DNA of 64,000 nucleotides, from the IMG/VR virus record IMGVR_UViG_3300033121_000578, positions 7,845-71,844 of that record, one strand, 5' to 3'. The position numbers and the translations under genes are program-made. The DNA comes from a virus. Below the pieces are notes generated by a model. That model had not been told where the DNA came from. It did not search any database and saw only the letters and a list, made by a program, of their open reading frames with translations. Below are positions 7,623 through 42,083 of this stretch, piece by piece (the first letter of the stretch is position 1; each line of letters begins with the position of its first letter).

Positions 7623-7922
7623 CTAACGCAATGAAAGCCTGAGTTTATACTCGGATAACTTATCAATAATCTCTTTTATGCTCTTTTCACCACAGTTCCT
7701 GATTTTGGATAAATCCTCAATAGTATAGGTTGAGGTAAAATGCTCCAACGTATCATCAAGTACTCTTCCATCTAATTGGTAAAGAATATTGATGATTCTT
7801 GCGTTATATCCAAATACATCACGCATAGTTGGCTCAATATCAGGTTTTTGTAACTCTTCAGCTATCTCCTTAAGACTGTCTGCAATACCATGCAAAATTC
7901 TTGAGATTTTACTTTTGTTCAT
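7623..7922 (-). CDS. RNA polymerase alpha-subunit C-terminal-domain-like HhH DNA-binding protein
   Basis: C-terminal LSKIRNCGEKSIKEIIDKLSEYKLRLS closely matches the alpha-CTD motif [22 protein letters not shown] (recalled from memory). Confidence 0.55.
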   Translation of the reverse strand: MNKSKISRILHGIADSLKEIAEELQKPDIEPTMRDVFGYNARIINILYQLDGRVLDDTLEHFTSTYTIEDLSKIRNCGEKSIKEIIDKLSEYKLRLSLR

Positions 7923-9874: not shown

Positions 9875-9907
9875 TTTGGATTTGCCCTTATAATTAGTGT
9901 ATATTTG
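9875..9907 (+). promoter_or_regulatory. Bacteroidetes-type promoter (-33 TTTG, -7 TATATTTG) for the plus-strand block
   Basis: TATATTTG at 9900-9907, TTTG at 9875-9884; the ATG at 9912 is only a few nt downstream. Confidence 0.5.
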
Positions 9908-9911
9908 TTGT

Positions 9912-10112
9912 ATGGAATTGAAATTCAAACATTTAGTAAATGAGATGATTGAGAAGGGATGGAGGGTATACTATTTTGGTACATTCCCGCCCTCTGGGAT
10001 ATTAGATAATATGTGTCATGCACGCAACTTGGAGATGCTTACCTACGAGGGTAAGCCTTTTTTATTTGTAAGAGATAAGTATAAGAAGGAGGTAAAGAAT
10101 GAGAAGAAATGA
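9912..10112 (+). CDS. hypothetical protein (66 aa from ATG 9912; the listed ORF starts at GTG 9897)
   Basis: first ORF after the divergent promoter. Confidence 0.4.
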   Translation: MELKFKHLVNEMIEKGWRVYYFGTFPPSGILDNMCHARNLEMLTYEGKPFLFVRDKYKKEVKNEKK

Positions 10113-15854: not shown

Positions 15855-16157
15855 ATGTTAGTAGCAGTCGATACAGTAAAAGATTTAGGGAAGGTAAAGA
15901 AGGGAAGTCCTTACTCCTTCCAGTTTGCATTAAGAAACAACGGACAGAACGAAGTTATAATTGACAGAATATCAGTAGGTTGTGGGTCCTGTACAAAGGC
16001 ATCCACCTCTAAGGTAAAGCTTGGTCCGGGAGATACATCAAATATAGATGTAATCTTTACTCCGGGTTCTACTGGTACCCAACAAAAATTCGTGAATGTG
16101 CAGTGGAATAGGGATAATCTCTTGAAGCTGACATTTACAGCAGATTCATATGAGTAA
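15855..16157 (+). CDS. DUF1573-like small protein (a Bacteroidetes-type domain)
   Basis: about 100 aa with NNGQNEVIIDRISVGCGSC, resembling the DUF1573 CGC signature (from memory). Confidence 0.45.
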   Translation: MLVAVDTVKDLGKVKKGSPYSFQFALRNNGQNEVIIDRISVGCGSCTKASTSKVKLGPGDTSNIDVIFTPGSTGTQQKFVNVQWNRDNLLKLTFTADSYE

Positions 16158-17925
16158 AGTTAAATTCATAGAAGATACACACCAGTATTTGACAGAAGAT
16201 GGAAGAGAGTTAATCTCAGTGTCAGCATTTACAGAAAGATTTAAACCAAAAGTTGATTGGAAAGCAGTTGCCAAAAAGGTAGCAGCAAAAAAGACAAAAG
16301 CCGGAGAACCAACTACCACCGAGGAAATCCTTAAGAAGTGGGAGGAGAAGAGGGATTTATCTGCCAAAATAGGAACAATTTTTCACTCTATTAAGGAAGA
16401 AGAGTTGTTGGGGCAGGAAAATCCCATCTTTTATAATACACCATGTTCTACTAAGGAGTGCCTCTATACAGGAACAGACAAGTGGTCAATTCCCATTAAT
16501 AAGCTGGAGAATAATACCGTATATCCAGAATTAATGATATATGACATAGAGCATATGATTTGTGGACAATCAGATAAAGTAATTGTTGCCAACAATAAAA
16601 TAAATATCTGGGACTATAAAGGTTTGGCTCTTGATACAATAATACCTACAGAGACAGGATTTAAACTAATGGCTGATATTCAGGTTGGTGATAGGATTTT
16701 TGACGGAGAAGGTATATTAACATCAGTCAAGCATATTTCTGAAATACATTATAATCCATGTTACAGGGTATTTTTTGATACAGGTGATAGTATAGTATGT
16801 GACCATGAACATAAATGGGAGATTTCACACAGACTCTCAAAAGGTAAATATAAAGATTTAGAGAAAAGAACTGATGAATTATTCTCATATTTTGGTAAAG
16901 GTAAACCTATAAGAATAAAATGCAACCCTTTGGTTTTACCTAAAATTGAACTTCCTATAGACCCTTATATTTTAGGAGTGTGGTTAGGAGATGGTAACTC
17001 ACATGCTGGTAGAATTACAAATATGAATCCGAATTTATGGATAGAAATAGAGAAAAGAGGATATACTCTTGGGAAAGATATTTCAGGAGGTAGTTCTGGC
17101 AAAGCTCAGGATAAAACAATATTTGGATTAGAAACTCAATTAACAAAACTTGGATTACTTAAAAATAAACATATTCCTGATATATATCTTAGAGGGTCTT
17201 ATGAACAAAGATTAGATTTACTTCGTGGTCTTATGGATACAGATGGTAGTTGGAATAAAAAGAGAAAAAGATGTGTGATGGTTACAACAAAAGAATGGCA
17301 AGCTAATGGAATATCTGAAATAGTTTCGTCTCTTGGTTGGAAACCAACTATTATTAAAGCCAAAACATCAGGTTTTGGTAAAGATAATATATCTTGTTTT
17401 CATGTTAATTTTGATGCTAAGGAAAATCCATTTCTAACAAAGAATGAAGATTATAAACCTAATAATAAGGAGAAATCTAATTATAGATATATAAAAGAAA
17501 TAAGGAAGATAGATAGTATACCGACAAAATGTATATCTGTAGATAGTCCTGCTCATACATATCTTGTCACCAGAAATTACATAAAAACTCATAATACTGA
17601 CGCAGAGATAAAGTTTAAGGCTTTTTCTAGTCAGTGGGTAAAACCACAGAAGCTACTTGGACCATTGGCACACCTAGATGACTGTAATGCTAATATCTAT
17701 TCTATTAAGATGTCATTGTACATGTATCTTTTATGGAGAGCAAACAGGGGAACACTTAGGACGGGTGATATTATGATTGAGCATGTACATCTTGAGAGAG
17801 ATGAAGATGGACTTCCGATTCTTGAAGATGGCAAACCAATTGTAAAAAAGATTGAGCAAATCCAATTACCCTATCGAAAGAAGGAAGTTATGGATATGCT
17901 AGCAACCCTAAAAGTAAAAGCATGA
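16150..17925 (+). CDS. PD-(D/E)XK (RecB/Cas4/YqaJ-like) nuclease interrupted by an intein-like Hint plus LAGLIDADG homing-endonuclease insertion
   Basis: extein GQSDKV...IWDYKG|...|TDAEIKF gives D...DYK nuclease motifs. The insertion (about residues 158-482, nt ~16621-17595) starts with LALDTIIPTETG...VGDRIF (block A-like), has two LAGLIDADG motifs (ILGVWLGDGNSHA, LLRGLMDTDGSW) and ends with YLVTRNYIKTHN|T (block G HN plus Thr +1). Confidence 0.8.
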   Translation: MSKVKFIEDTHQYLTEDGRELISVSAFTERFKPKVDWKAVAKKVAAKKTKAGEPTTTEEILKKWEEKRDLSAKIGTIFHSIKEEELLGQENPIFYNTPCSTKECLYTGTDKWSIPINKLENNTVYPELMIYDIEHMICGQSDKVIVANNKINIWDYKGLALDTIIPTETGFKLMADIQVGDRIFDGEGILTSVKHISEIHYNPCYRVFFDTGDSIVCDHEHKWEISHRLSKGKYKDLEKRTDELFSYFGKGKPIRIKCNPLVLPKIELPIDPYILGVWLGDGNSHAGRITNMNPNLWIEIEKRGYTLGKDISGGSSGKAQDKTIFGLETQLTKLGLLKNKHIPDIYLRGSYEQRLDLLRGLMDTDGSWNKKRKRCVMVTTKEWQANGISEIVSSLGWKPTIIKAKTSGFGKDNISCFHVNFDAKENPFLTKNEDYKPNNKEKSNYRYIKEIRKIDSIPTKCISVDSPAHTYLVTRNYIKTHNTDAEIKFKAFSSQWVKPQKLLGPLAHLDDCNANIYSIKMSLYMYLLWRANRGTLRTGDIMIEHVHLERDEDGLPILEDGKPIVKKIEQIQLPYRKKEVMDMLATLKVKA

Positions 17926-36249: not shown

Positions 36250-37311
36250 ATGGCTTGTCCTGAAGTAAATCCTTGCGACCCTTGTAATGAATATGATAAC
36301 TGTGGTTGTCTTAATCCTACTACATTTGGGTGCGTAACAACAAATAAAGTAAGAGAGTGCCTTGGTACAGAATCAGGAGAGGATGGTGAAAGTGTCCTTG
36401 ATAAGATAGAGGAAAAGGTATGTAATATTGGAAAAGTTATCATTGATGATAATGATACTTGTCCTGAAGGTCTTTTTGATAAACTAGAAGCTGGTCTTAA
36501 TATATCTTTAACACAATCAGGTACTGGATGTGATAAAAAGATAAGAATTGATGCTACTGAAGGTGGTGTTCCAGTAGACGTAAATGTAAAAATATCTACA
36601 GATGACACAACAAGTGGATATCTATATGATAAAATACAAACAGGAACATATCTCACAAAATCAATAGTATCACCTGCGGGTAATGAAAAGCTAAGATTAG
36701 ATGTAGTACCATCTACTTTGATTTCATCTGATTTAGGAAATCAACTTGGTTTAGGTGGAGATGGAAAATTAGTTACCCTATATACTGCCCCTGATGGTAG
36801 TGAGACGCAGTTAATTGCTGGTACAGGTACCACTGTTAGTGGTTCTGGTACATTAGTTGACCCATATATAGTATCAACTAATGCATCTATTCAGGTAGCT
36901 CGTCCATGTTTTGATGGTATTTGGAGAAATATTACACTTGTAGCAACAGGTAATCCTAGTGTTACATACATGTCTGGTGCTCCTCAATATCGTTATCGTT
37001 TTGACGGAACTATTGAGTTCAGAGGCTCTGCTACATATCAAGTAGCTTTTGGTAATAATGTATCTGCATCCAGAAAGTTCACAATTACAGCTGGTAATAT
37101 ACCAACTACATGCTTAACTCTTGGTGAACAAGCTGGTACAATTGATTTAAAATCAATAACTTATATAGAAAGTGCAGGTCAGATGTACAACTATATCATA
37201 AGAAAAGCTACTCAAAATATAGTTCTGGAATTCCAGTCTTCATTTACTGCAGCTACAAATAAAACAATAGTTGTAAACTTTGAAGGAGCTGTGAGTCATC
37301 CCCTAATATAA
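36250..37311 (+). CDS. putative tail fibre protein with Cys-rich N-terminus (353 aa)
   Basis: MACPEVNPCDPCNEYDNCGC then Gly/Thr-rich repeats. Confidence 0.55.
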   Translation: MACPEVNPCDPCNEYDNCGCLNPTTFGCVTTNKVRECLGTESGEDGESVLDKIEEKVCNIGKVIIDDNDTCPEGLFDKLEAGLNISLTQSGTGCDKKIRIDATEGGVPVDVNVKISTDDTTSGYLYDKIQTGTYLTKSIVSPAGNEKLRLDVVPSTLISSDLGNQLGLGGDGKLVTLYTAPDGSETQLIAGTGTTVSGSGTLVDPYIVSTNASIQVARPCFDGIWRNITLVATGNPSVTYMSGAPQYRYRFDGTIEFRGSATYQVAFGNNVSASRKFTITAGNIPTTCLTLGEQAGTIDLKSITYIESAGQMYNYIIRKATQNIVLEFQSSFTAATNKTIVVNFEGAVSHPLI

Positions 37312-37361
37312 TTTGGACTTCAAATATAAAACCTCGGTTGTTGGTTCTCCGAGAAAGTTTG

Positions 37362-37394
37362 GGAGGGTATGTCTATACTCTCCTTTTATTTTTA
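37362..37394 (+). terminator. rho-independent terminator after the fibre cluster
   Basis: GGAGGGTAT(gtct)ATACTCTCC then TTTTATTTTT. Confidence 0.6.
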
Positions 37395-37413: not shown

Positions 37414-37461
37414 ATGAAAAAGCTTTACGGTGGTGGTTGTGGATGTGGAGGTAAAAAATAA
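37414..37461 (+). CDS. tiny Gly/Cys peptide ORF (15 aa, MKKLYGGGCGCGGKK)
   Basis: ATG...TAA between a terminator and a promoter; speculative. Confidence 0.2.
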   Translation: MKKLYGGGCGCGGKK

Positions 37462-37482: not shown

Positions 37483-37514
37483 TTTGGTTAGTAAAATAAT
37501 TTGTCATATATTTG
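37483..37514 (+). promoter_or_regulatory. Bacteroidetes-type promoter (-33 TTTG 37483-86, -7 TATATTTG 37507-14)
   Basis: consensus spacing of ~20; the ATG of the 29-aa ORF is 5 nt downstream. Confidence 0.55.
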
Positions 37515-37518
37515 CTAT

Positions 37519-37608
37519 ATGAAATTACAACGTACACATACACAATGGTTTACCTGCCCCCAGTGCCCATGCACAGGAGAGGGGTGTTGTGTATGTATAC
37601 TAAACTAA
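37519..37608 (+). CDS. 29-aa Cys-rich peptide (MKLQRTHTQWFTCPQCPCTGEGCCVCILN)
   Basis: its own promoter directly upstream and its own terminator 37634-37664 downstream; 7 Cys in 29 residues. Confidence 0.35.
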   Translation: MKLQRTHTQWFTCPQCPCTGEGCCVCILN

Positions 37609-37633
37609 AACAGTCAGAGGTATAAATATACAA

Positions 37634-37664
37634 CCCCATCCCAAAAAGGTGGGGTTTTCTTTTT
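37634..37664 (+). terminator. rho-independent terminator
   Basis: CCCCATCC(caaaaa)GGTGGGG then TTTTCTTTTT. Confidence 0.55.
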
Positions 37665-37702
37665 CGAGTGGTAGTTCAGTTGGTAGAATGCGTGCTTTAG
37701 AA
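37665..37702 (+). pseudogene. tRNA 5' half (acceptor CGAGTGG, D-arm GTTC-AGTTGGTA-GAAT, 5' anticodon stem CGTGC, loop TTTAGAA)
   Basis: canonical tRNA 5' structure that stops inside the anticodon loop; the matching 3' half is at 38299-38323. Confidence 0.55.
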
Positions 37703-37721: not shown

Positions 37722-37752
37722 TTTGGAAATCCAAAACTTTTTTCTTAACTTT
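37722..37752 (+). promoter_or_regulatory. Bacteroidetes-type promoter for the HNH gene (-33 TTTG, -7 TAACTTTG)
   Basis: aaataaaTTTGgaaatccaaaacttttttcTAacTTTGtgatATG. Confidence 0.5.
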
Positions 37753-37757
37753 GTGAT

Positions 37758-38240
37758 ATGAAAACCTTAATACTATGTAGCCATTGCGGAAATTCTTTTG
37801 AAGCAGAAAACAAATATATTAATTATAGTAAGAAAAAAGGATGGAATTTATATTGCTCGGAGAATTGTAAATTTGCAGGAAAGAAAAAATCTGAGGTATG
37901 TAATTGTCATACCTGTGGAAAATCTGTGATTAAAACACCATCCTCTAAAAAGAGGTCAATAAGTGGAAAGGTTTTCTGCAGTAGAAAATGTTCTACAATA
38001 TTTACTAATTCTGAATATAAAACAGGAGAAAGGCATCCTAATTATAATAATGGATTATCTTCTTATAGACAAAGAAAATTAAGAAGTGGCAATAACAAGT
38101 GCGAAGATTGTGGAAACTCTGATATAAGAGTATTAGAGGTTCACCATAGAGATGAAAATAGAAAGAATAACTCTCTTGAAAATTTAGCAATTCTTTGTGC
38201 TAATTGTCACAGAATAAGACATTTCGAGAATGTGGTGTAA
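37758..38240 (+). CDS. HNH homing endonuclease with N-terminal CxxC zinc-finger repeats
   Basis: C-terminal EVHHRDENRKNNSLENLAILCANCHRIRH is an HNH motif; multiple CxxC pairs. Confidence 0.75.
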   Translation: MKTLILCSHCGNSFEAENKYINYSKKKGWNLYCSENCKFAGKKKSEVCNCHTCGKSVIKTPSSKKRSISGKVFCSRKCSTIFTNSEYKTGERHPNYNNGLSSYRQRKLRSGNNKCEDCGNSDIRVLEVHHRDENRKNNSLENLAILCANCHRIRHFENVV

Positions 38241-38294
38241 TGGTAGCACTCTAAGTTTGGGACTTAGGAGAGCCGTTCGAATCGGACATTTTCG
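38226..38294 (+). tRNA. tRNA-Pro(TGG)-like with defective T-arm (possible pseudogene)
   Basis: acceptor GAGAATG/CATTTTC (7 bp, one GU), D-arm GTGT-AATGGTA-GCAC, anticodon arm CTAAG-TTTGGGA-CTTAG; the T-arm is only CCG-TTCGAAT-CGG; overlaps the HNH ORF 3' end. Confidence 0.4.
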
Positions 38295-38298
38295 ACTG

Positions 38299-38323
38299 AG
38301 TGGTTCGAGTCCAGTCCACTCGA
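38299..38323 (+). pseudogene. tRNA 3' part (T-arm AGTGG-TTCGAGT-CCAGT plus acceptor CCACTCG, discriminator A) matching the 5' half at 37665
   Basis: acceptor strand is the exact reverse complement of CGAGTGG at 37665-37671; the T-arm resembles bacterial tRNA-Asn. Confidence 0.55.
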
Positions 38324-38328
38324 CACAA

Positions 38329-38402
38329 GCCTGAGTAGCTTTAACTGGTAGAGCAGCTGCCTTGTAAGCAGACGGTTGCAGGTTCGAGTCCTGTCTTAGG
38401 CT
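38329..38402 (+). tRNA. tRNA-Thr(TGT)
   Basis: hand-folded cloverleaf: acceptor GCCTGAG/CTTAGGC, anticodon loop CTTGTAA, T-arm GCAGG-TTCGAGT-CCTGT. Confidence 0.8.
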
Positions 38403-38407
38403 CATAT

Positions 38408-38434
38408 GTCACCTTGGCTGAGTGGTCAAAGGCA
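38408..38434 (+). pseudogene. tRNA 5' fragment of class-II (Ser-like) type
   Basis: GTCACCT-TG-GCTGAGTGGTCAAAGGC resembles a tRNA-Ser acceptor plus D-arm, then breaks off into the HNH promoter. Confidence 0.4.
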
Positions 38435-38441
38435 AAATAAA

Positions 38442-38473
38442 TTTGGCAATTTGAACCTTTTGTTGTATATTTG
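38442..38473 (+). promoter_or_regulatory. Bacteroidetes-type promoter for the second HNH gene (-33 TTTG, -7 TATATTTG)
   Basis: aaataaaTTTGgcaatttgaaccttttgttgTAtaTTTGtat. Confidence 0.55.
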
Positions 38474-38490
38474 TATTATAATACAAAATT

Positions 38491-39084
38491 ATGAACAAGG
38501 GTTTAAAAAGTAAAGTTATTGAGTTATATTCACAAGGAAAATCATATAATCAAATTTCAGAGGAATTAGGTTGTAGTAAAGGAACAATATCTTTTCATGT
38601 TTCTTCTATGGCAGAAGAAAAGATACACAAGGTTCGAAGAGAAAAGAAAAAACAAATAGAAACCATAATTAATGAAGTTAAAGAGTCTAAAGGTTTAACT
38701 TTAAAAGACTTTGAAGACATCTACAGAATGACTCTTCCTTTAAAAGACTTCTTAAAACTGAGAAATGAGTTATTTGAGAAAAAATATATTACCAAGGAAC
38801 TAAGTGTTGCAGATTATCATAAAAATAGAAGAAGACAAATAAAAAAAGAATTGGTTGACATTAAAGGTGGAAAATGTCAAGTGTGTGGATATAATAAATG
38901 TCTTAGGTCATTAGAGTTTCATCATCTAGACCCTTTACAAAAAGATTTTACAATATCTGGAAATCTCAAAAGAATTAAGAGAGAAAAAGTAATAAAAGAG
39001 CTAGAAAAATGCATATTAGTATGTTCTAACTGTCATGGAGAAATACATGATGGATTAATAAGAGTAGATACCAGAGAGGATTAA
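38491..39084 (+). CDS. HNH homing endonuclease with N-terminal HTH
   Basis: CQVCGYNKCLRSLEFHHLDPLQKDFTISGNLKRI...CSNCHGEIH is an HNH motif; N-terminal YSQGKSYNQISEELGCSKGTISFHV is HTH-like. Confidence 0.75.
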   Translation: MNKGLKSKVIELYSQGKSYNQISEELGCSKGTISFHVSSMAEEKIHKVRREKKKQIETIINEVKESKGLTLKDFEDIYRMTLPLKDFLKLRNELFEKKYITKELSVADYHKNRRRQIKKELVDIKGGKCQVCGYNKCLRSLEFHHLDPLQKDFTISGNLKRIKREKVIKELEKCILVCSNCHGEIHDGLIRVDTRED

Positions 39085-39137
39085 TGGCTCAGACTGCAAA
39101 TCTGTTGATTTCGGGAGTTCGAATCTCCCTCTACTCT
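39062..39137 (+). tRNA. tRNA-Cys(GCA)
   Basis: acceptor GAGTAGA/TCTACTC perfect, anticodon loop CTGCAAA, T-arm GGGAG-TTCGAAT-CTCCC; atypical D-arm; the 5' 23 nt overlap the HNH ORF end. Confidence 0.6.
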
Positions 39138-39143
39138 CATAAT

Positions 39144-39216
39144 GGTAAGTTAGCAAAGATGGTCTATGCGGAGGACTGAAAATCCTTAGATAGTGGTTCG
39201 ATACCACTACTTACCA
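39144..39216 (+). tRNA. tRNA-Phe(GAA)
   Basis: acceptor GGTAAGT/ACTTACC, anticodon loop CTGAAAA, T-arm AGTGG-TTCGATA-CCACT. Confidence 0.8.
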
Positions 39217-39222
39217 CAACAT

Positions 39223-39295
39223 ACGGGTGCTCAAGGCTGGCGTGATAAACCGTCTCCAAAACGGTGACTTGGGGAATCGTTCTCTCCCACCCGTG
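39223..39295 (+). tRNA. tRNA-Trp(CCA)
   Basis: acceptor ACGGGTG/CACCCGT, anticodon arm ACCGT-CTCCAAA-ACGGT; weak D-stem and unusual T-loop ATCGTTC. Confidence 0.6.
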
Positions 39296-39300
39296 CATAT

Positions 39301-39372
39301 TTCCAAGTAGGATAATGGTATTCCGTCAGATTTTGGCTCTGAAAATTCTAGGTTCGACCCCTAGCTTGGAAA
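39301..39372 (+). tRNA. tRNA-Gln(TTG)
   Basis: acceptor TTCCAAG/CTTGGAA, anticodon arm TCAGA-TTTTGGC-TCTGA, T-arm CTAGG-TTCGACC-CCTAG. Confidence 0.8.
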
Positions 39373-39374
39373 CT

Positions 39375-39449
39375 GGTGTCTATAGCTTAACTGGATAGAG
39401 CCCCTGATTGTGGCTCAGGGTTGTGCCGATTCGAATTCGGTTAGACACC
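39375..39449 (+). tRNA. tRNA-His(GTG) with G-1:C73
   Basis: 8-bp acceptor GGTGTCTA/TAGACACC including the His-specific G-1; anticodon loop TTGTGGC. Confidence 0.85.
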
Positions 39450-39453
39450 CACT

Positions 39454-39527
39454 GCTCCCATAGCTTAACTGGATAAAGCACATGGCTACGGACCATGAGA
39501 CTGAGGGCTCGAATCCTTCTGGGAGTA
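39454..39527 (+). tRNA. tRNA-Arg(ACG)
   Basis: D-arm GCTT-AACTGGATA-AAGC, anticodon arm CATGG-CTACGGA-CCATG, T-arm GAGGG-CTCGAAT-CCTTC. Confidence 0.8.
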
Positions 39528-39562
39528 CATTAACAATTCATTAGGATATATATGTCGTATAT

Positions 39563-39835
39563 TTGTGTATGCAATTCAATCCAAACTCAAACGAATATCT
39601 TAGTAAATTTGAACCTAAGACATGGGATGAAATAAAAGAACAACCATCTCATGATAATATATGGGTGAAAGACCCAGAAAAGCTTCTTAAGCTTGAGAAT
39701 ATGACGGGAATATGGTCTCAACTTCAAGAGCCGTCTAGGCAGATAACCCTAATGACAGGTAGGGGTGGAATGGAGCTCTTTCAGAAAGCAATGAAAGAAA
39801 TGTTTGAAAAAGAGCAAGAAAAATTTGGAAATTAG
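39563..39835 (+). CDS. hypothetical protein (90 aa)
   Basis: ORF between tRNA clusters. Confidence 0.45.
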   Translation: MCMQFNPNSNEYLSKFEPKTWDEIKEQPSHDNIWVKDPEKLLKLENMTGIWSQLQEPSRQITLMTGRGGMELFQKAMKEMFEKEQEKFGN

Positions 39836-39855
39836 AAAATTAGTTCGTATATTTG
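39823..39855 (+). promoter_or_regulatory. Bacteroidetes-type promoter (-33 TTTG, -7 TATATTTG) with no ORF downstream
   Basis: aaaaaTTTGgaaattagaaaattagttcgTAtaTTTGtattcg. Confidence 0.5.
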
Positions 39856-39861
39856 TATTCG

Positions 39862-40036
39862 TAAAAACATTAAACAGCAGATGTACTTATTTTATATGAT
39901 AGCGGATAATGGAGATGTGAGAGGCATTGAGAAAAATGGCTCCGGGTTTCCTATGTCTGTTGTCTAAGTAGAAACAAATACCAACTGATTAGAAGCCTGG
40001 AGCCTAGCCACAAGCTACTCCGGGTTTTTTCGTTTT
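39862..40036 (+). ncRNA. candidate ~170-nt noncoding transcript (promoter to terminator, no significant ORF)
   Basis: bounded by the promoter at 39823-39855 and the hairpin CCTGGAG(N16)CTCCGGG plus TTTTTT at 39996-40036; contains direct repeat CTCCGGGTTT at 39940 and 40017. Confidence 0.35.
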
Positions 40037-40037
40037 A

Positions 40038-40111
40038 GCCCTTGTAGCTTGAAGGCCAAGCAATAGACTTTTAATCTATGGTTCTCAGTTCGATTCTGAG
40101 CAGGGGTACCA
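40038..40111 (+). tRNA. tRNA-Lys(TTT), CCA encoded
   Basis: anticodon arm ATAGA-CTTTTAA-TCTAT, T-arm CTCAG-TTCGATT-CTGAG, acceptor GCCCTTG/CAGGGGT then ACCA. Confidence 0.8.
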
Positions 40112-40115
40112 AAAT

Positions 40116-40145
40116 GCTTTTGTAGCTCATGTGGAAGCAGCTATC
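40116..40145 (+). pseudogene. tRNA 5'-half-like fragment (acceptor plus D-arm GCTC-ATGTGGAA-GC)
   Basis: GCTTTTG-TA-GCTCATGTGGAAGCAGC; no T-arm; overlaps the start of tRNA-Lys(CTT). Confidence 0.3.
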
Positions 40146-40220
40146 CCAGTCTTAGCAAAATTTGGTGTTGCTCCTGACTCTTAATCAGGTAAAAAGTGAG
40201 TTCGATTCTCACAGGCTGGA
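40146..40220 (+). tRNA. tRNA-Lys(CTT)
   Basis: D-arm GCAA-AATTTGGTG-TTGC, anticodon arm CCTGA-CTCTTAA-TCAGG, T-arm GTGAG-TTCGATT-CTCAC. Confidence 0.8.
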
Positions 40221-40235
40221 CATAATAAATTATAT

Positions 40236-40308
40236 TGAGGGATGCAGCAGTGGTAGCTGGCAGGTCTCATAAGCCTCGCAGTCGTGGGTTCGAGTCCCAC
40301 TCCCTCAA
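40236..40308 (+). tRNA. tRNA-Met(CAT), elongator or Ile2-type
   Basis: acceptor TGAGGGA/TCCCTCA, D-arm CAGC-AGTGGTA-GCTG, anticodon loop CTCATAA, T-arm GTGGG-TTCGAGT-CCCAC. Confidence 0.7.
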
Positions 40309-40313
40309 CAAAA

Positions 40314-40345
40314 TTTGGTCATTATTTATAATCTCCATACATTTG
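40314..40345 (+). promoter_or_regulatory. Bacteroidetes-type promoter (-33 TTTG, -7 TACATTTG) giving a near-leaderless start at 40349
   Basis: aaaaTTTGgtcattatttataatctccaTAcaTTTGtatATG. Confidence 0.5.
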
Positions 40346-40348
40346 TAT

Positions 40349-40813
40349 ATGGAAAGATATTTTCGGACAGAGGATGGTAAGATGGTAAATGTCATAGAAC
40401 ACACTTTGGAACAAATAGAAAAGTGGCCAAATCTTAAAATCTATATAGCAACTGATAGTCAGGATTCAGGAAAAGAATCAAAGTATGCTACAGTAGTTGT
40501 ATATAGATATGGAACAAGAGGGGCACACTATATTTACTTCAAGGATGCAGTTCCAAGAAGAGATATGTTTACTCGTCTTTATGATGAAGCTGTTCGTACA
40601 ATAGAGACTGCTCAAATGATTGATAGTGAGATACCTGTATCATTTGCAGCTCTTGAGTTTGACTATAATACTTTACCTAAGTGGGCAAGTAATAAGCTTG
40701 TATCATCAATAAGAGGATGGGTAAAGGGATTAAATTATAACTTTGTATTTAAGAATACAGGAAATGACATCATGATAGCTGCAAAGGCAGCAGACCATGT
40801 ATGTAGAAGGTAA
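40349..40813 (+). CDS. hypothetical protein, possibly RNase H-like fold nuclease (154 aa)
   Basis: start at ATG 40349 (the listed ORF's N-terminus is translated tRNA); KIYIATDSQDS and IMIAAKAADH are loosely RuvC/RNase H-like. Confidence 0.45.
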   Translation: MERYFRTEDGKMVNVIEHTLEQIEKWPNLKIYIATDSQDSGKESKYATVVVYRYGTRGAHYIYFKDAVPRRDMFTRLYDEAVRTIETAQMIDSEIPVSFAALEFDYNTLPKWASNKLVSSIRGWVKGLNYNFVFKNTGNDIMIAAKAADHVCRR

Positions 40814-40885
40814 GCAGTAGTAGTGCTAATGGTAACACGCCAGCCTTCCACGCTGGATTTGAGAGTTCGAGTCTCTTCTACTGCT
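40814..40885 (+). tRNA. tRNA-Gly(TCC)
   Basis: acceptor GCAGTAG/CTACTGC, anticodon arm CCAGC-CTTCCAC-GCTGG, T-arm GAGAG-TTCGAGT-CTCTT. Confidence 0.8.
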
Positions 40886-41003
40886 CATAAGCCCGAAGTA
40901 CAAGGGAACGAAGATAGAGTAACTCCTCTGGAAACATGAAACTCTCTAAATCGTAGGTTAGCACAGTTTGAAGGTCTGGGGATATTGTTTAAAACCTTCA
41001 ATT

Positions 41004-41076
41004 GCAGCAATAGCTCAATTGGTAGAGCGTGACCTTGCCAAGGTTAAGGTTGCAGGTTCGAGACCTGTTTGCTGCT
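41004..41076 (+). tRNA. tRNA-Gly(GCC)
   Basis: acceptor GCAGCAA/TTGCTGC, D-arm GCTC-AATTGGTA-GAGC, anticodon loop TTGCCAA. Confidence 0.8.
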
Positions 41077-41081
41077 CATAT

Positions 41082-41155
41082 GCTCCTGTGGACAAGTTGG
41101 TTAAGTCACTTGCCTTTCACGCAAGTCATCGTGGGTTCGAGCCCCATCAGGAGTA
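41082..41155 (+). tRNA. tRNA-Glu(TTC)
   Basis: anticodon arm CTTGC-CTTTCAC-GCAAG, T-arm GTGGG-TTCGAGC-CCCAT. Confidence 0.8.
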
Positions 41156-41160
41156 CATAA

Positions 41161-41235
41161 GGAACCATGGTCGAATTGGTTACGATTCCACCCTGTCACG
41201 GTGCGAGATTGCGGGTTCGAGTCCCGTTGGTTCCG
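41161..41235 (+). tRNA. tRNA-Asp(GTC)
   Basis: acceptor GGAACCA/TGGTTCC, anticodon loop CTGTCAC, T-arm GCGGG-TTCGAGT-CCCGT. Confidence 0.75.
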
Positions 41236-41290
41236 CTAGGAGAGCACGTTTTGTACGTCTGAGGCTGAAAGAAGCAATCCCTCTCCATCC

Positions 41291-41362
41291 ACTCTTATAG
41301 CTCAATGGTAGAGCACATGCCTTATACGCATTAGGTTTCCAGTTCGAATCTGGATGAGAGTA
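41291..41362 (+). tRNA. tRNA-Ile(TAT)
   Basis: D-arm GCTC-AATGGTA-GAGC, anticodon loop CTTATAC (U33, TAT, A37), T-arm TCCAG-TTCGAAT-CTGGA, acceptor ACTCTTA/TGAGAGT. Confidence 0.7.
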
Positions 41363-41424
41363 CAGGAGATAACCTCTGGTATACAAGTGGCCACCCTGTG
41401 TCTATGGGTCAAGTTATCTCAATT

Positions 41425-41497
41425 GCTCATATAACTCAATTGGTAGAGTACTACTCCGATACGGTAGAAGTTATAGGTTCGAGACCTATTATGAGCA
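41425..41497 (+). tRNA. tRNA-Ile(GAT)
   Basis: acceptor GCTCATA/TATGAGC perfect, D-arm ACTC-AATTGGTA-GAGT, anticodon loop CCGATAC (C33 atypical), T-arm ATAGG-TTCGAGA-CCTAT. Confidence 0.6.
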
Positions 41498-41498
41498 C

Positions 41499-41969
41499 AT
41501 GAAACCATTTAAAGAAGCATTAGAAGAGGCAACAATCTATGAAGATTTGATTGCAAACTGGTTAGAATCCAGAGGAAATAAGATACTTTTTCGTTCAAAA
41601 GAGAAGGAGTTTGACATACAATATCTAACAGTAGATGGTAAAACAAAAACTATTGAAGTAAAATATGACAAGCTATCTTCTGAAACAGGTAATGTAGCAA
41701 TTGAATTTAAAAGAAAAAACAAGAAATCTGAGGAATTTGAAGCAACTGGAATATCAGTTACAACTGCAAATTATTGGGTACACATAGTAGATAAATTTGA
41801 TGTCTATATTATAGATAGAGAGATACTACTAATGCAGATTCAAAGTAATGGATACCCACAGGTATTTGGTGGAGATGATATGAGAACTAAAATGCATCTT
41901 ATAGATAAACAGGAATTTGCAGAAATGTGCAAAGTATATAAGAATGCTTTATACGGGGGATTAGTATAG
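41499..41969 (+). CDS. hypothetical protein (156 aa)
   Basis: ORF starting 2 nt after tRNA-Ile; its 3' end overlaps tRNA-Ala. Confidence 0.5.
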   Translation: MKPFKEALEEATIYEDLIANWLESRGNKILFRSKEKEFDIQYLTVDGKTKTIEVKYDKLSSETGNVAIEFKRKNKKSEEFEATGISVTTANYWVHIVDKFDVYIIDREILLMQIQSNGYPQVFGGDDMRTKMHLIDKQEFAEMCKVYKNALYGGLV

Positions 41970-42027
41970 ATGGCAAAAATACCTGATTTGCATTCAGGAG
42001 TCACCAGTTCGATGCTGGTATCCTCCA
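41955..42027 (+). tRNA. tRNA-Ala(TGC) with G3:U70
   Basis: acceptor GGGGGAT/ATCCTCC carrying the Ala identity G3:U70 wobble; anticodon arm CCTGA-TTTGCAT-TCAGG, T-arm ACCAG-TTCGATG-CTGGT. Confidence 0.8.
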
Positions 42028-42083
42028 CATTTATTTGGTAATATGGAAATTTTGTAGTATATTGTACTATAAATAATACTACC

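Follow-up and report, generated by a model that had tools for sequence, protein, structure and literature searches.

A short cysteine-rich reading frame upstream of a tRNA array in a crAss-like phage as a candidate attenuator leader peptide

We analysed a stretch of 64,000 nucleotides (hereafter the window) from the IMG/VR virus record IMGVR_UViG_3300033121_000578, positions 7,845 to 71,844. The window is DNA of a crAss-like phage, with genes for tail ring proteins and a Crassvirus muzzle protein, and its genes are encoded on the + strand. The subject of this study is a small open reading frame (ORF) of 29 codons, ORF B (MKLQRTHTQWFTCPQCPCTGEGCCVCILN; 37519-37608, + strand), which is located between a promoter and an intrinsic terminator upstream of an array of transfer RNA (tRNA) genes. 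From its sequence and from folding models, we propose that ORF B encodes the leader peptide of a trp-type ribosome-mediated transcription attenuator for the first tRNA block of this phage, and we give this reading a probability of about 0.6. The anatomy of the element, the agreement of its composition and codons with the tRNA block, the alternative RNA pairings with their covariation and the recurrence of such elements in other phages are direct observations.

The ORF B peptide and the tRNA block use the same alphabet

The first tRNA block (38225-39528, + strand) consists of Pro(tgg), Thr(tgt), Cys(gca), Phe(gaa), a degenerate Trp(cca)-like gene, Gln(ttg), His(gtg) and Arg(acg). Codons 4-19 of ORF B (37528-37575, + strand) encode the proposed sensor run QRTHTQWFTCPQCPCT, in which all 16 residues are taken from {P,T,C,F,W,Q,H,R}. 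The run uses all eight of these amino acids, and the set is identical to that of the eight-tRNA block. In a six-frame translation of 105,138 amino acids this run of 16 was the unique maximum, the next longest being 10, and in the proteins of the window (13,660 residues) the longest such run was 7. Because of this uniqueness, a general codon preference does not explain the run. Over the complete peptide, 19 of the 29 residues belong to the set of the block, compared to an expectation of 7.5 in 28 (P = 7e-6). The agreement extends to the codons, since 17/29 codons of ORF B are cognate to the anticodons of the block versus 19% genome-wide (P = 2.5e-6).

Relatives were retrieved with the neighbouring 353-amino-acid protein (99%, 93%, 85%, 74%, 68%, 66%, 65% and 61% identity), and the more distant phages L020/L024 and L047 were added via peptide and pattern searches. 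Orthologues of ORF B were found in L001, L007, L008, L009, L010, L011, L002, L003, L015, L047, L020 and L024; there are nine distinct versions, all of them open and of varied lengths. The orthologues carry runs of 12-14 residues (RQHTWFTCTQCPF, RQWHTPTCTQCPF, QRTWHTCTQCPF, QRHTWPTFTQCTT and HTQWFTFCPQCPCT) in which the order is permuted and the alphabet is kept, which argues for selection on codon content and not on a fold. The order of the tRNA genes, Pro(tgg)-Thr(tgt)-Cys(gca)-Phe(gaa)-Trp(cca)-Gln(ttg)-His(gtg)-Arg(acg), is conserved across the clade (window, L009, L010, L002, L003 and L047). Moreover, all nine Arg residues in the ORF B orthologues are encoded by CGN (CGT, CGC or CGA), whereas 78% of the Arg codons of the genome are AGR. 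This choice of CGN agrees with the isoacceptor of the block, tRNA-Arg(acg). In L020/L024, where only tRNA-Cys follows, the leader MIINKNIYEPCCAQCQIEGGCIICIKK contains 5 Cys and is devoid of R, T, H, W and F.

Promoter, start codon and terminator

The initial annotation of this locus had described a self-contained micro-gene with a consensus promoter, a peptide with 7 Cys and a terminator. Bacteroidetes sigma-A promoter elements are centred at -33 and -7 (PMC7366714), and the consensus from that study was used to scan the window. The promoter was indeed present (37483-37514, + strand), with the -33 box TTTG at 37483-37486 and the -7 box TATATTTG at 37507-37514, separated by a 20-nucleotide spacer. 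The two-box pattern is more frequent than expected, with 12 occurrences in the window compared to 3.3 +/- 2.0 in shuffled sequences; ten of the 12 are on the + strand, the strand of the genes, and half of these ten fall in the tRNA region. A promoter is kept upstream of ORF B, or upstream of ORF B together with a second tiny ORF (ORF A, discussed below), in all relatives.

The ATG (37519) and the TAA (37606-37608) of ORF B were found where they had been annotated. The peptide contains 6 Cys and not 7, and the pattern CxxCxCx4CCxC that accompanied the annotation also holds 6. The ATG starts five bases past the last G of the -7 box, with four bases between them, and the same spacing was found in front of the neighbouring HNH gene and in every orthologue. 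Since the ATG lies at or within 2 nucleotides of the expected transcription start, the ORF B messenger RNA (mRNA) is probably leaderless or nearly so. An ATG exactly five bases after the -7 box is present in three of the ten + strand promoter matches (9875-9913, 37483-37521 and 37722-37760), which suggests that the phage makes repeated use of leaderless mRNAs.

The intrinsic terminator and proposed attenuator (37632-37664, + strand) was likewise confirmed. It consists of a 9-bp hairpin at 37632-37656 with the arms AACCCCATC (37632-37640) and GGTGGGGTT (37648-37656), followed by the T-run TTTTCTTTTT up to 37664. There are 11 terminator-like sites in the window versus 3.3 expected. As for self-containment, the promoter, the ORF and the hairpin with its T-run are all there, but the T-run abuts the 5' half of a tRNA-Pro at 37665. 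The unit is not self-contained, because its terminator is part of the leader of the tRNA block. Among the relatives, wherever the sequence extends to the tRNA junction (L009, L010, L011, L002, L003, L047 and L020/L024), the T-run after ORF B ends no more than about 10 nucleotides from the 5' end of a tRNA, and no promoter motif was found between the T-run and the tRNA in any of them. Therefore, the promoter of ORF B (or of A-B) is the only visible promoter for that tRNA. Downstream of ORF B we found only tRNA and HNH endonuclease genes; genes for amino-acid biosynthesis or aminoacylation, the classical targets of attenuators, were not found there.

Alternative pairings in the leader transcript

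The transcript from 37519 to 37664 folds at -41.5 kcal/mol (z = -2.5). Four segments on the + strand give rise to three mutually exclusive pairings, 1:2, 2:3 and 3:4. Segment 1 (GTACACATACACAA, 37532-37545) pairs with segment 2 to form a long hairpin inside the ORF (37532-37545 with 37587-37600). Segment 2 (GGGGTGTTGTGTATGTATACT, 37581-37601), which carries the codons for G C C V C I L, pairs with either segment 1 or segment 3. Segment 3 (GGTATAAATATACAACCCC, 37619-37637) includes part of the terminator 5' arm and forms the proposed antiterminator with segment 2; this pairing (37582-37601 with 37619-37637) extends across the stop codon and uses up the CCCC of the terminator 5' arm. The pairing 3:4 (37632-37640 with 37648-37656) is the terminator.

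The 1:2 hairpin is present in the window, L009, L010, L011, L002 and L047, and is weak in L020. A consensus helix was also obtained for it from an alignment of nine sequences, and the changes in L009 and L010, as read from the sequence, keep or improve the pairing. The nucleotides of segment 2 are invariant in the window, L009 and L010. For the 2:3 hairpin, the 68-nucleotide region of the window folds at -20.1 kcal/mol (z = -2.9), and in comparison with dinucleotide shuffles the z-scores ranged from -1.6 to -4.3 in all eight orthologues, with p <= 0.05 in five and 0.052 in a sixth. The spacer sequences of this hairpin are unalignable between lineages. The helix at its base joins the G-run of the ORF to the C-run of the arm; it is 87% paired in nine sequences and shows three compensatory pairs (GC to UA, UA to CG); only 1-2 of 500 shuffles reached the observed values. 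In all cases the stop codon is located inside the alternative hairpin.

The effect of a ribosome was simulated by masking a stretch of 30 nucleotides in truncated or full-length transcripts. In the truncated transcript of the window, the terminator 5' arm was 80-90% paired, and it was sequestered with codons 1-16 in the A site and freed at codons 17-27. For the full leader of the window, the probability of the terminator was 0.9 without a ribosome, 0-0.5 with the ribosome at codons 3-15 and 0.7-0.9 from codon 16 onwards. According to these simulations, the sensor run lies where a stall would favour read-through.

In the proposed mechanism, scarcity of any of the eight charged tRNAs would cause the ribosome to linger on codons 4-17. 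The lingering ribosome would leave segment 1 covered or unpaired, so that segments 2 and 3 could pair, the terminator would be blocked and RNA polymerase could enter the tRNA genes. When the tRNAs are plentiful, the ribosome would soon reach the 3' end of the ORF and cover segment 2; the terminator could then form and a transcript of ~140 nucleotides would be released. Without a ribosome, 1:2 pairing would make termination the default. The outcome would be a negative feedback on the tRNA supply of the phage and possibly a response to depletion of host tRNAs. In this scheme we infer that ORF B is translated, that its translation is coupled to transcription and that control runs in the direction given above; the physiological trigger might be a mismatch in codon usage or depletion of host tRNAs by defence nucleases.

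Conservation of ORF B

The arrangement of the locus varies among the relatives. In the window, L009 and L010, ORF B has a promoter to itself; in L002, L011 (with the stop/start overlap TAATG) and L047 it comes directly after ORF A, and in L003 and L015 the two ORFs form an in-frame fusion. In L020/L024, ORF B is found upstream of ORF A with a tRNA in between. In all these arrangements ORF B has a tRNA directly downstream, unlike ORF A, which usually lacks one.

Conservation of ORF B extends to its start codon, to the reading frame over the first two thirds and to the amino-acid alphabet. Most substitutions within the core are silent (Cys, Gln, Pro, Glu and Thr codons); together with the fixed start codon, this argues that ORF B is translated. 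In the alignment, only Q15, C16 and G22 are invariant, and the number of Cys drops from 6 down to 1 across the orthologues. The extreme case is L002, in which ORF B has one Cys and one His, five of the six Cys being lost through a frame-shifted 3' third. L002 nevertheless keeps the sensor run, the nucleotides of segment 2 (read in another frame), segment 3 and the terminator. Because the frame changes in L002 and the nucleotides are kept, the 3' third of ORF B appears to be constrained as RNA.

Neither Pfam nor PHROG contains a family for ORF B or ORF A, a profile search of 5.8 billion proteins yielded only A-like and no B-like peptides, and exact-word scans of IMG/VR with the ORF B or terminator sequences returned no contigs beyond those already found. 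A tblastn search with the fused peptide gave only chance matches, in mycobacteriophages. In Rfam, only tRNAs reached the gathering score and no leader family such as Trp_leader or His_leader, no small RNA and no T-box family matched; at a permissive threshold all other matches were far below gathering, the best being a microRNA precursor model on the opposite strand (21.6 bits, E = 0.045).

A second leader in the window and leaders in unrelated phage arrays

The window contains a second, analogous leader (39824-40037, + strand) in front of a Lys-Lys-...-Met block, with a promoter at 39824-39855, an ORF at 39881-39967 and a hairpin with T-run at 39995-40031. The T-run ends seven bases before tRNA-Lys, which starts at 40038, and the block reads Lys-Lys-[Val-Arg(tct)-Asn]-Met. 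The ORF comprises 28 codons (MYLFYMIADNGDVRGIEKNGSGFPMSVV) and is conserved in L009, L010, L003 and L047. Within it, GGCTCCGGG (39938-39946) is a copy of the terminator 3' arm and pairs with the 5' arm over 9 bp. The helix between this copy and the 5' arm is 97.8% paired in five sequences with two compensatory pairs, and in L003 the copy lies in another reading frame. In the simulation, the probability of the terminator decreased from 0.96 to 0.1-0.2 with the ribosome at codons 7-15. All six Arg codons of the second leader are AGA or AGG, in agreement with tRNA-Arg(tct), and the contrast with ORF B is significant (Fisher P = 2e-4).

We also inspected arrays of unrelated phages, which were fetched solely by a tRNA 18-mer. 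A hairpin with a T-run abuts the first tRNA in 16 of 172 tRNA blocks. Among the leaders of these arrays, the ORF in front of a Phe/Glu/Ala x11 block (MNKNFNIEFIAVAAERIAEFAERVFAIDNSVHRFK) carries the mirror portion ...EFIAVAAERIAEFAERVFA, and that in front of a Cys-Val-Leu block (MKTINNILSVLCLCLLVLVSVSGCGIN) the mirror portion ...LSVLCLCLLVLV. A Trp-Asn-Asn-Lys-Phe-His block is preceded by MITINKHNNFKNWFSKRKLSRNTIM with the run NKHNNFKNWF, and a block of Ala followed by Phe/Glu/Val/Asp by MKTFNNIFDFAIEAAEADFSLGRSSIDKS. For a block of Asp-Asp followed by Gly/Lys/His, 16/32 residues of the leader are in the set (P = 6e-4). The enrichments of the individual leaders ranged from 4e-2 to 2e-5, and when six independent leaders were compared to their blocks, the true pairing was the best of 720 permutations. 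Several of the unrelated leaders also hold a copy of the terminator 3' arm within the ORF, for example GTGCACAGG versus CCTGTGCAC in L106. The small ORFs whose composition mirrors the block behind them lie in L094 (3411 and 9483 on the tRNA strand), L106 (6488 and 8566), L119 (892) and L120 (5622), and at each of these sites a hairpin with a T-run comes next and abuts the first tRNA.

We regard it as an even chance that these elements form a so far undescribed class of 'tRNA-mirror' leader peptides in phage arrays, written in the codons that the tRNAs just downstream decode and combined with terminator/antiterminator hairpins, which would switch a block on when its tRNAs are scarce and off once they are supplied. 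The class would include the two units of the window and leaders with other alphabets elsewhere.

Points against attenuation and rival explanations

Several observations weigh against an attenuator. All of the evidence is computational, and coupling of the ribosome to the transcribing polymerase, be it that of the host or of the phage, is something that we infer. Leaderless mRNAs are rare in Bacteroides, where ~3.7% of the 5' untranslated regions are shorter than 10 nucleotides (PMC7366714). At equilibrium the switch is clear in three of the eight orthologues (window, L009 and L020), and because the terminator dominates thermodynamically in the other five, a kinetic argument is needed. A model based on equilibrium alone, which works for these 3/8 orthologues, was therefore rejected, and folding of truncated transcripts, z-scores and covariation were relied on instead. 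The sequence of segment 3 is not conserved among the window, L009 and L010, and the complementarity is weaker in L009 and L047. Some ordinary terminators of the window also have structured upstream regions (z down to -3.1); because of these controls, the structural statistics alone are not decisive. Of the run codons, ACC, CCC, CCT and ACT do not exactly match the UGU and UGG anticodons, and the second leader has no significant enrichment for the amino acids of its block (P = 0.29). A positional motif, T/C-x-Q-C-P ... C-x-C-I, is conserved in ORF B and could reflect a peptide function or an RNA constraint.

Finally, what follows the proposed attenuator in the window is now a broken tRNA, and the block is fed by a promoter further downstream. 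The T-run directly precedes a tRNA-Pro remnant (from 37665), after which an HNH cassette with its own promoter was inserted. Since the cassette has disrupted the first tRNA and supplies a promoter of its own, attenuation would probably control the block only in part in this phage.

The main rival is that ORF B encodes a functional Cys-rich micro-protein, for example a zinc- or metal-binding one and perhaps acting together with ORF A, which is merely co-transcribed with the tRNAs, the hairpin being an ordinary leaky terminator. We consider this unlikely, although it is the best of the rivals. The six Cys show CxxC and CxC spacing, with an invariant Q-C and a frequent C-x-C-I, the changes in the core are mostly synonymous, and the in-frame fusions with ORF A (L003 and L015) as well as the TAATG overlap (L011) link the two peptides, so that the CxC of ORF A could complete a four-Cys site. 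On the other hand, the locus is kept in L002 with one Cys in ORF B, only one Cys column is invariant, and a folded peptide would not predict an N-terminal half that is permuted within the eight-letter alphabet of the tRNA block. A micro-protein would also leave the choice of Arg codons according to the tRNA-Arg isoacceptor unaccounted for. In addition, ORF B has no Pfam or PHROG match, it always has a tRNA directly downstream, unlike ORF A, and analogous leaders with quite different alphabets are found in other phages. The L002 variant, the permuted and alphabet-restricted run and the isoacceptor-specific Arg codons in particular weaken this explanation. Both functions may also be combined, with ORF B serving as attenuator leader and as a functional Cys-rich micro-protein.

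These data also bear on the roles that had been put forward in the initial annotation. The view that a product is deliberately expressed here is borne out insofar as ORF B appears to be transcribed and translated, to judge from the strong promoter, the ATG at the transcription start, the mostly synonymous changes in the core and the in-frame fusions to ORF A. None of the suggested roles fits best, and a regulatory leader peptide was not among them. A metal-binding or redox peptide agrees poorly with a single invariant Cys across the orthologues and with an element that L002 keeps with a single Cys; a zinc-ribbon or metallothionein-like micro-protein likewise fits poorly with the L002 peptide, with its one Cys and one His, and with the missing Pfam/PHROG match. 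A precursor of a ribosomally synthesized and post-translationally modified peptide (RiPP), including the SCIFF/ranthipeptide type, was dismissed as well: Pfam found no radical-SAM, YcaO, Lan or protease gene among the 18 flanking ORFs, maturation enzymes were not found within ~10 kb, and the Cys pattern is not conserved. An RNA with an incidental ORF is hard to reconcile with the conserved start codon and alphabet and with a reading frame that is kept over the first two thirds.

A second rival, slightly less probable than the micro-protein, is a constitutive leader that senses nothing. It would act through transcript stability, processing by RNase P or RNase III or ribosome loading, with a fixed level of read-through, and the match in amino acids would be a by-product of codon preference. 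Several tRNA blocks are abutted by a hairpin and T-run, the long imperfect duplex within the ORF resembles a processing substrate, and five of the eight orthologues fold at equilibrium without a switch, all of which would suit such a leader. It is contradicted by the run of 16 being unique in the six-frame translation and by leader alphabets that differ between blocks and track each block. Moreover, the copies of the terminator 3' arm within the ORFs covary with the 5' arm, and the stop codon is always within the alternative hairpin.

The weakest rival, a small regulatory RNA of ~140 nucleotides that ends at the terminator and in which the ORF is incidental, is very improbable: although the RNA is strongly structured (z = -2.5), the 3' third of L002 changes frame with its nucleotides kept, and a terminated attenuator RNA can act in trans in other bacteria according to an account of rnTrpL (PMC6614838), the ATG has a fixed place at the transcription start in every orthologue, nine distinct sequences of varied length maintain an open ORF, with an in-frame fusion to ORF A in two, synonymous changes are seen at Cys, Gln, Pro and Glu codons, Rfam gives no match, and the conserved amino-acid alphabet is readable only by translation. 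A role of the terminated RNA in trans could coexist with attenuation.

Relation to known systems

If ORF B is an attenuator leader, its closest counterparts would be the trpL, hisL, pheL, thrL, leuL and ilvL attenuators. These also have a short ORF directly after the promoter that is enriched in the regulatory codons, 1:2, 2:3 (antiterminator) and 3:4 (terminator) hairpins, an ORF end and stop codon inside the antiterminator, and termination as the default without translation, which for ORF B was seen in silico. Unlike the classical attenuators, ORF B would regulate tRNA genes and not biosynthetic enzymes, and its mixed run covers eight amino acids and eight tRNAs, whereas theirs cover one or two. 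ORF B further differs in that its mRNA is apparently leaderless, in that it is phage-encoded with a Bacteroidetes-type promoter and in that it has no Rfam leader match.

The pheM-pheST system of E. coli is a leader-peptide attenuator of phenylalanyl-tRNA synthetase. As proposed for ORF B, this attenuator acts on a component of the translation apparatus in response to the supply of charged tRNA; it differs in its synthetase target, in sensing a single amino acid and in being cellular. In T-box riboswitches, as in the proposed mechanism, the status of a tRNA sets read-through via a choice between antiterminator and terminator. However, T-boxes bind uncharged tRNA directly and without translation, and their targets are synthetase or amino-acid genes, whereas the ORF B locus has an ORF and no T-box motif or Rfam match.

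Small ORFs are known from tRNA operons, such as tyrT-tpr of E. coli and the tRNA regions of phages T4 and T5, which contain small ORFs and homing endonucleases. These regions resemble the ORF B locus in that tiny ORFs are co-transcribed with tRNAs and HNH or Seg-type endonucleases are interspersed, but their ORFs are located downstream of or between the tRNAs. We know of no case in which these ORFs mirror tRNA identity or overlap terminator/antiterminator structures. SCIFF ('six cysteines in forty-five residues') and metallothionein-like peptides are small and have six Cys like ORF B, and the fused A-B peptide has 46 residues and six Cys. In contrast to them, ORF B has no maturase nearby, its Cys positions are not conserved, the L002 version has one Cys and there is no family match.

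To our knowledge, little is known about the regulation of phage tRNA arrays. Recent work has tied phage tRNAs to codon-usage mismatch and to escape from host defences that target tRNAs. In a full-text literature search of incomplete coverage, we found no description of leader-peptide control of tRNA genes. If the proposed function holds true, ORF B would be part of the first known attenuator governing tRNA genes, a sensor of several amino acids rather than of one, and a built-in feedback loop on translational capacity during infection. It would also suggest how to annotate tiny ORFs that precede tRNA blocks, namely by the rule that the alphabet of the leader should equal that of the block, and such elements could serve as compact synthetic sensors of tRNA availability.

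ORF A, a micro-protein family at the same locus

ORF A (MKKLYGGGCGCGGKK; 37414-37461, + strand) lies downstream of the terminator of the preceding gene (37361-37384) and belongs to a family of micro-proteins with the pattern YGCGCGKP. It had been annotated as lying between terminators; it does follow the terminator of the previous gene on its 5' side, but the interval between ORF A and ORF B contains a promoter and no terminator. In some relatives ORF A is co-transcribed with ORF B or fused to it.

The YGCGCGKP pattern was found at 41 IMG/VR loci, and at 36 of these it is part of an ORF of 20-32 amino acids (28 and 46 amino acids where the ORF call took an upstream ATG). In 35 of the 36 IMG/VR family members, the motif starts exactly 7 codons after the ATG, that is at the 8th codon. 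The general form of the family is an ORF of ~15-34 codons with Y-G-C-G-C-G-(K/G) 5-8 codons after the ATG and a basic, often Pro-rich tail. Members usually begin with M[IVT]KN..., and Lys, Arg and Pro are abundant in the tail. ORF A of the window fits this form, and P0001-P0007 and the 36 IMG/VR loci (within L023-L063) are members. The codon entropy is 1.0 at the third position compared to 0.4-0.5 at positions 1-2, and between the window and L009 there are four synonymous and no non-synonymous changes. ORF A represents a real, widespread and unannotated family of phage micro-proteins that is separate from ORF B and shares its locus.

Most copies of ORF A are located between a gene that, by sequence reading, is M15-peptidase-like and of the endolysin type and tail-fibre-like genes. 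A role of ORF A as a tRNA leader was considered and rejected, as 34 of the 36 ORF A loci have no tRNA within 1.5 kb. Some of the tails (RPRPTRPRP, RPRPTTLPRPKK) resemble proline-rich antimicrobial peptides. In L020 (2296-3234, and also in P0002 and P0006), ORF A is followed by an ORF of 81 amino acids, an ORF of 45 amino acids with a lipoprotein-like signal and a CPBP/Rce1-like intramembrane protease of 139-143 amino acids. The presence of this protease near ORF A in L020-type phages does not speak for a RiPP at ORF B, as the module is absent from the window and has no link to ORF B.

The tRNA array and its surroundings

The locus is bounded upstream by a structural-type gene of 353 amino acids (36250-37311) with its terminator at 37361-37384 and downstream by the tRNA array. 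The array comprises 17 genes (38225-42028) with HNH endonuclease genes interspersed. A Pfam scan of the 18 flanking ORFs identified structural proteins, HNH, RNaseH-like and ring proteins and the muzzle protein. When GenBank phage DNA was searched for similarity, nothing matched the micro-gene region, and the 8-kb surroundings matched solely via tRNAs and HNH genes.

In the window, the first tRNA block is split by a second gene of the HNH family (38491-39084). The L002 block is compact, its eight tRNAs being separated by spacers of 2-5 nucleotides and followed by a new promoter. The degenerate tRNA-Trp(CCA)-like gene of the window (39221-39296) lies between tRNA-Phe and tRNA-Gln, where the relatives have a normal tRNA-Trp; it was called neither by ARAGORN nor by Rfam at the gathering score.

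The sequence that follows the T-run of ORF B (37665-37698, + strand) is what remains of the ancestral tRNA-Pro, namely its 5' half up to a break in the anticodon loop, as became apparent from the comparison with the intact tRNA-Pro of L009, L010, L002 and L003; ARAGORN and Rfam made no call for this half. It is followed by an HNH cassette (37722-38240, + strand) with a promoter at 37722-37753 and an ORF at 37758-38240 (PF01844 HNH, 1.3e-6). The cassette sits between the attenuator and the tRNA block, and the 3' end of its ORF overlaps a different, complete tRNA-Pro. It is missing from this site in L009, L010, L002 and L003, and in the close relatives L009 and L010 the ancestral arrangement is intact. 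The remnant and the cassette (37665-37698 and 37722-38296) look like a replacement driven by a homing endonuclease. Elsewhere in the window, an ORF of 591 amino acids (16150-17925) has a weak LAGLIDADG-like domain match under the Pfam cut-off; taken together with the several HNH genes found among the tRNA genes, this match suggests that the phage is heavily loaded with homing endonucleases.

A further hairpin (37328-37353, stem CTCGG/CCGAG, loop TTGTTGGTTCT) is located immediately behind the stop codon of the 353-amino-acid gene, ahead of its terminator, and the window contains a single copy. All relatives have retained it, and in the distant L020 a compensatory stem (CTGTAG/CTGCAG) carries the identical loop.

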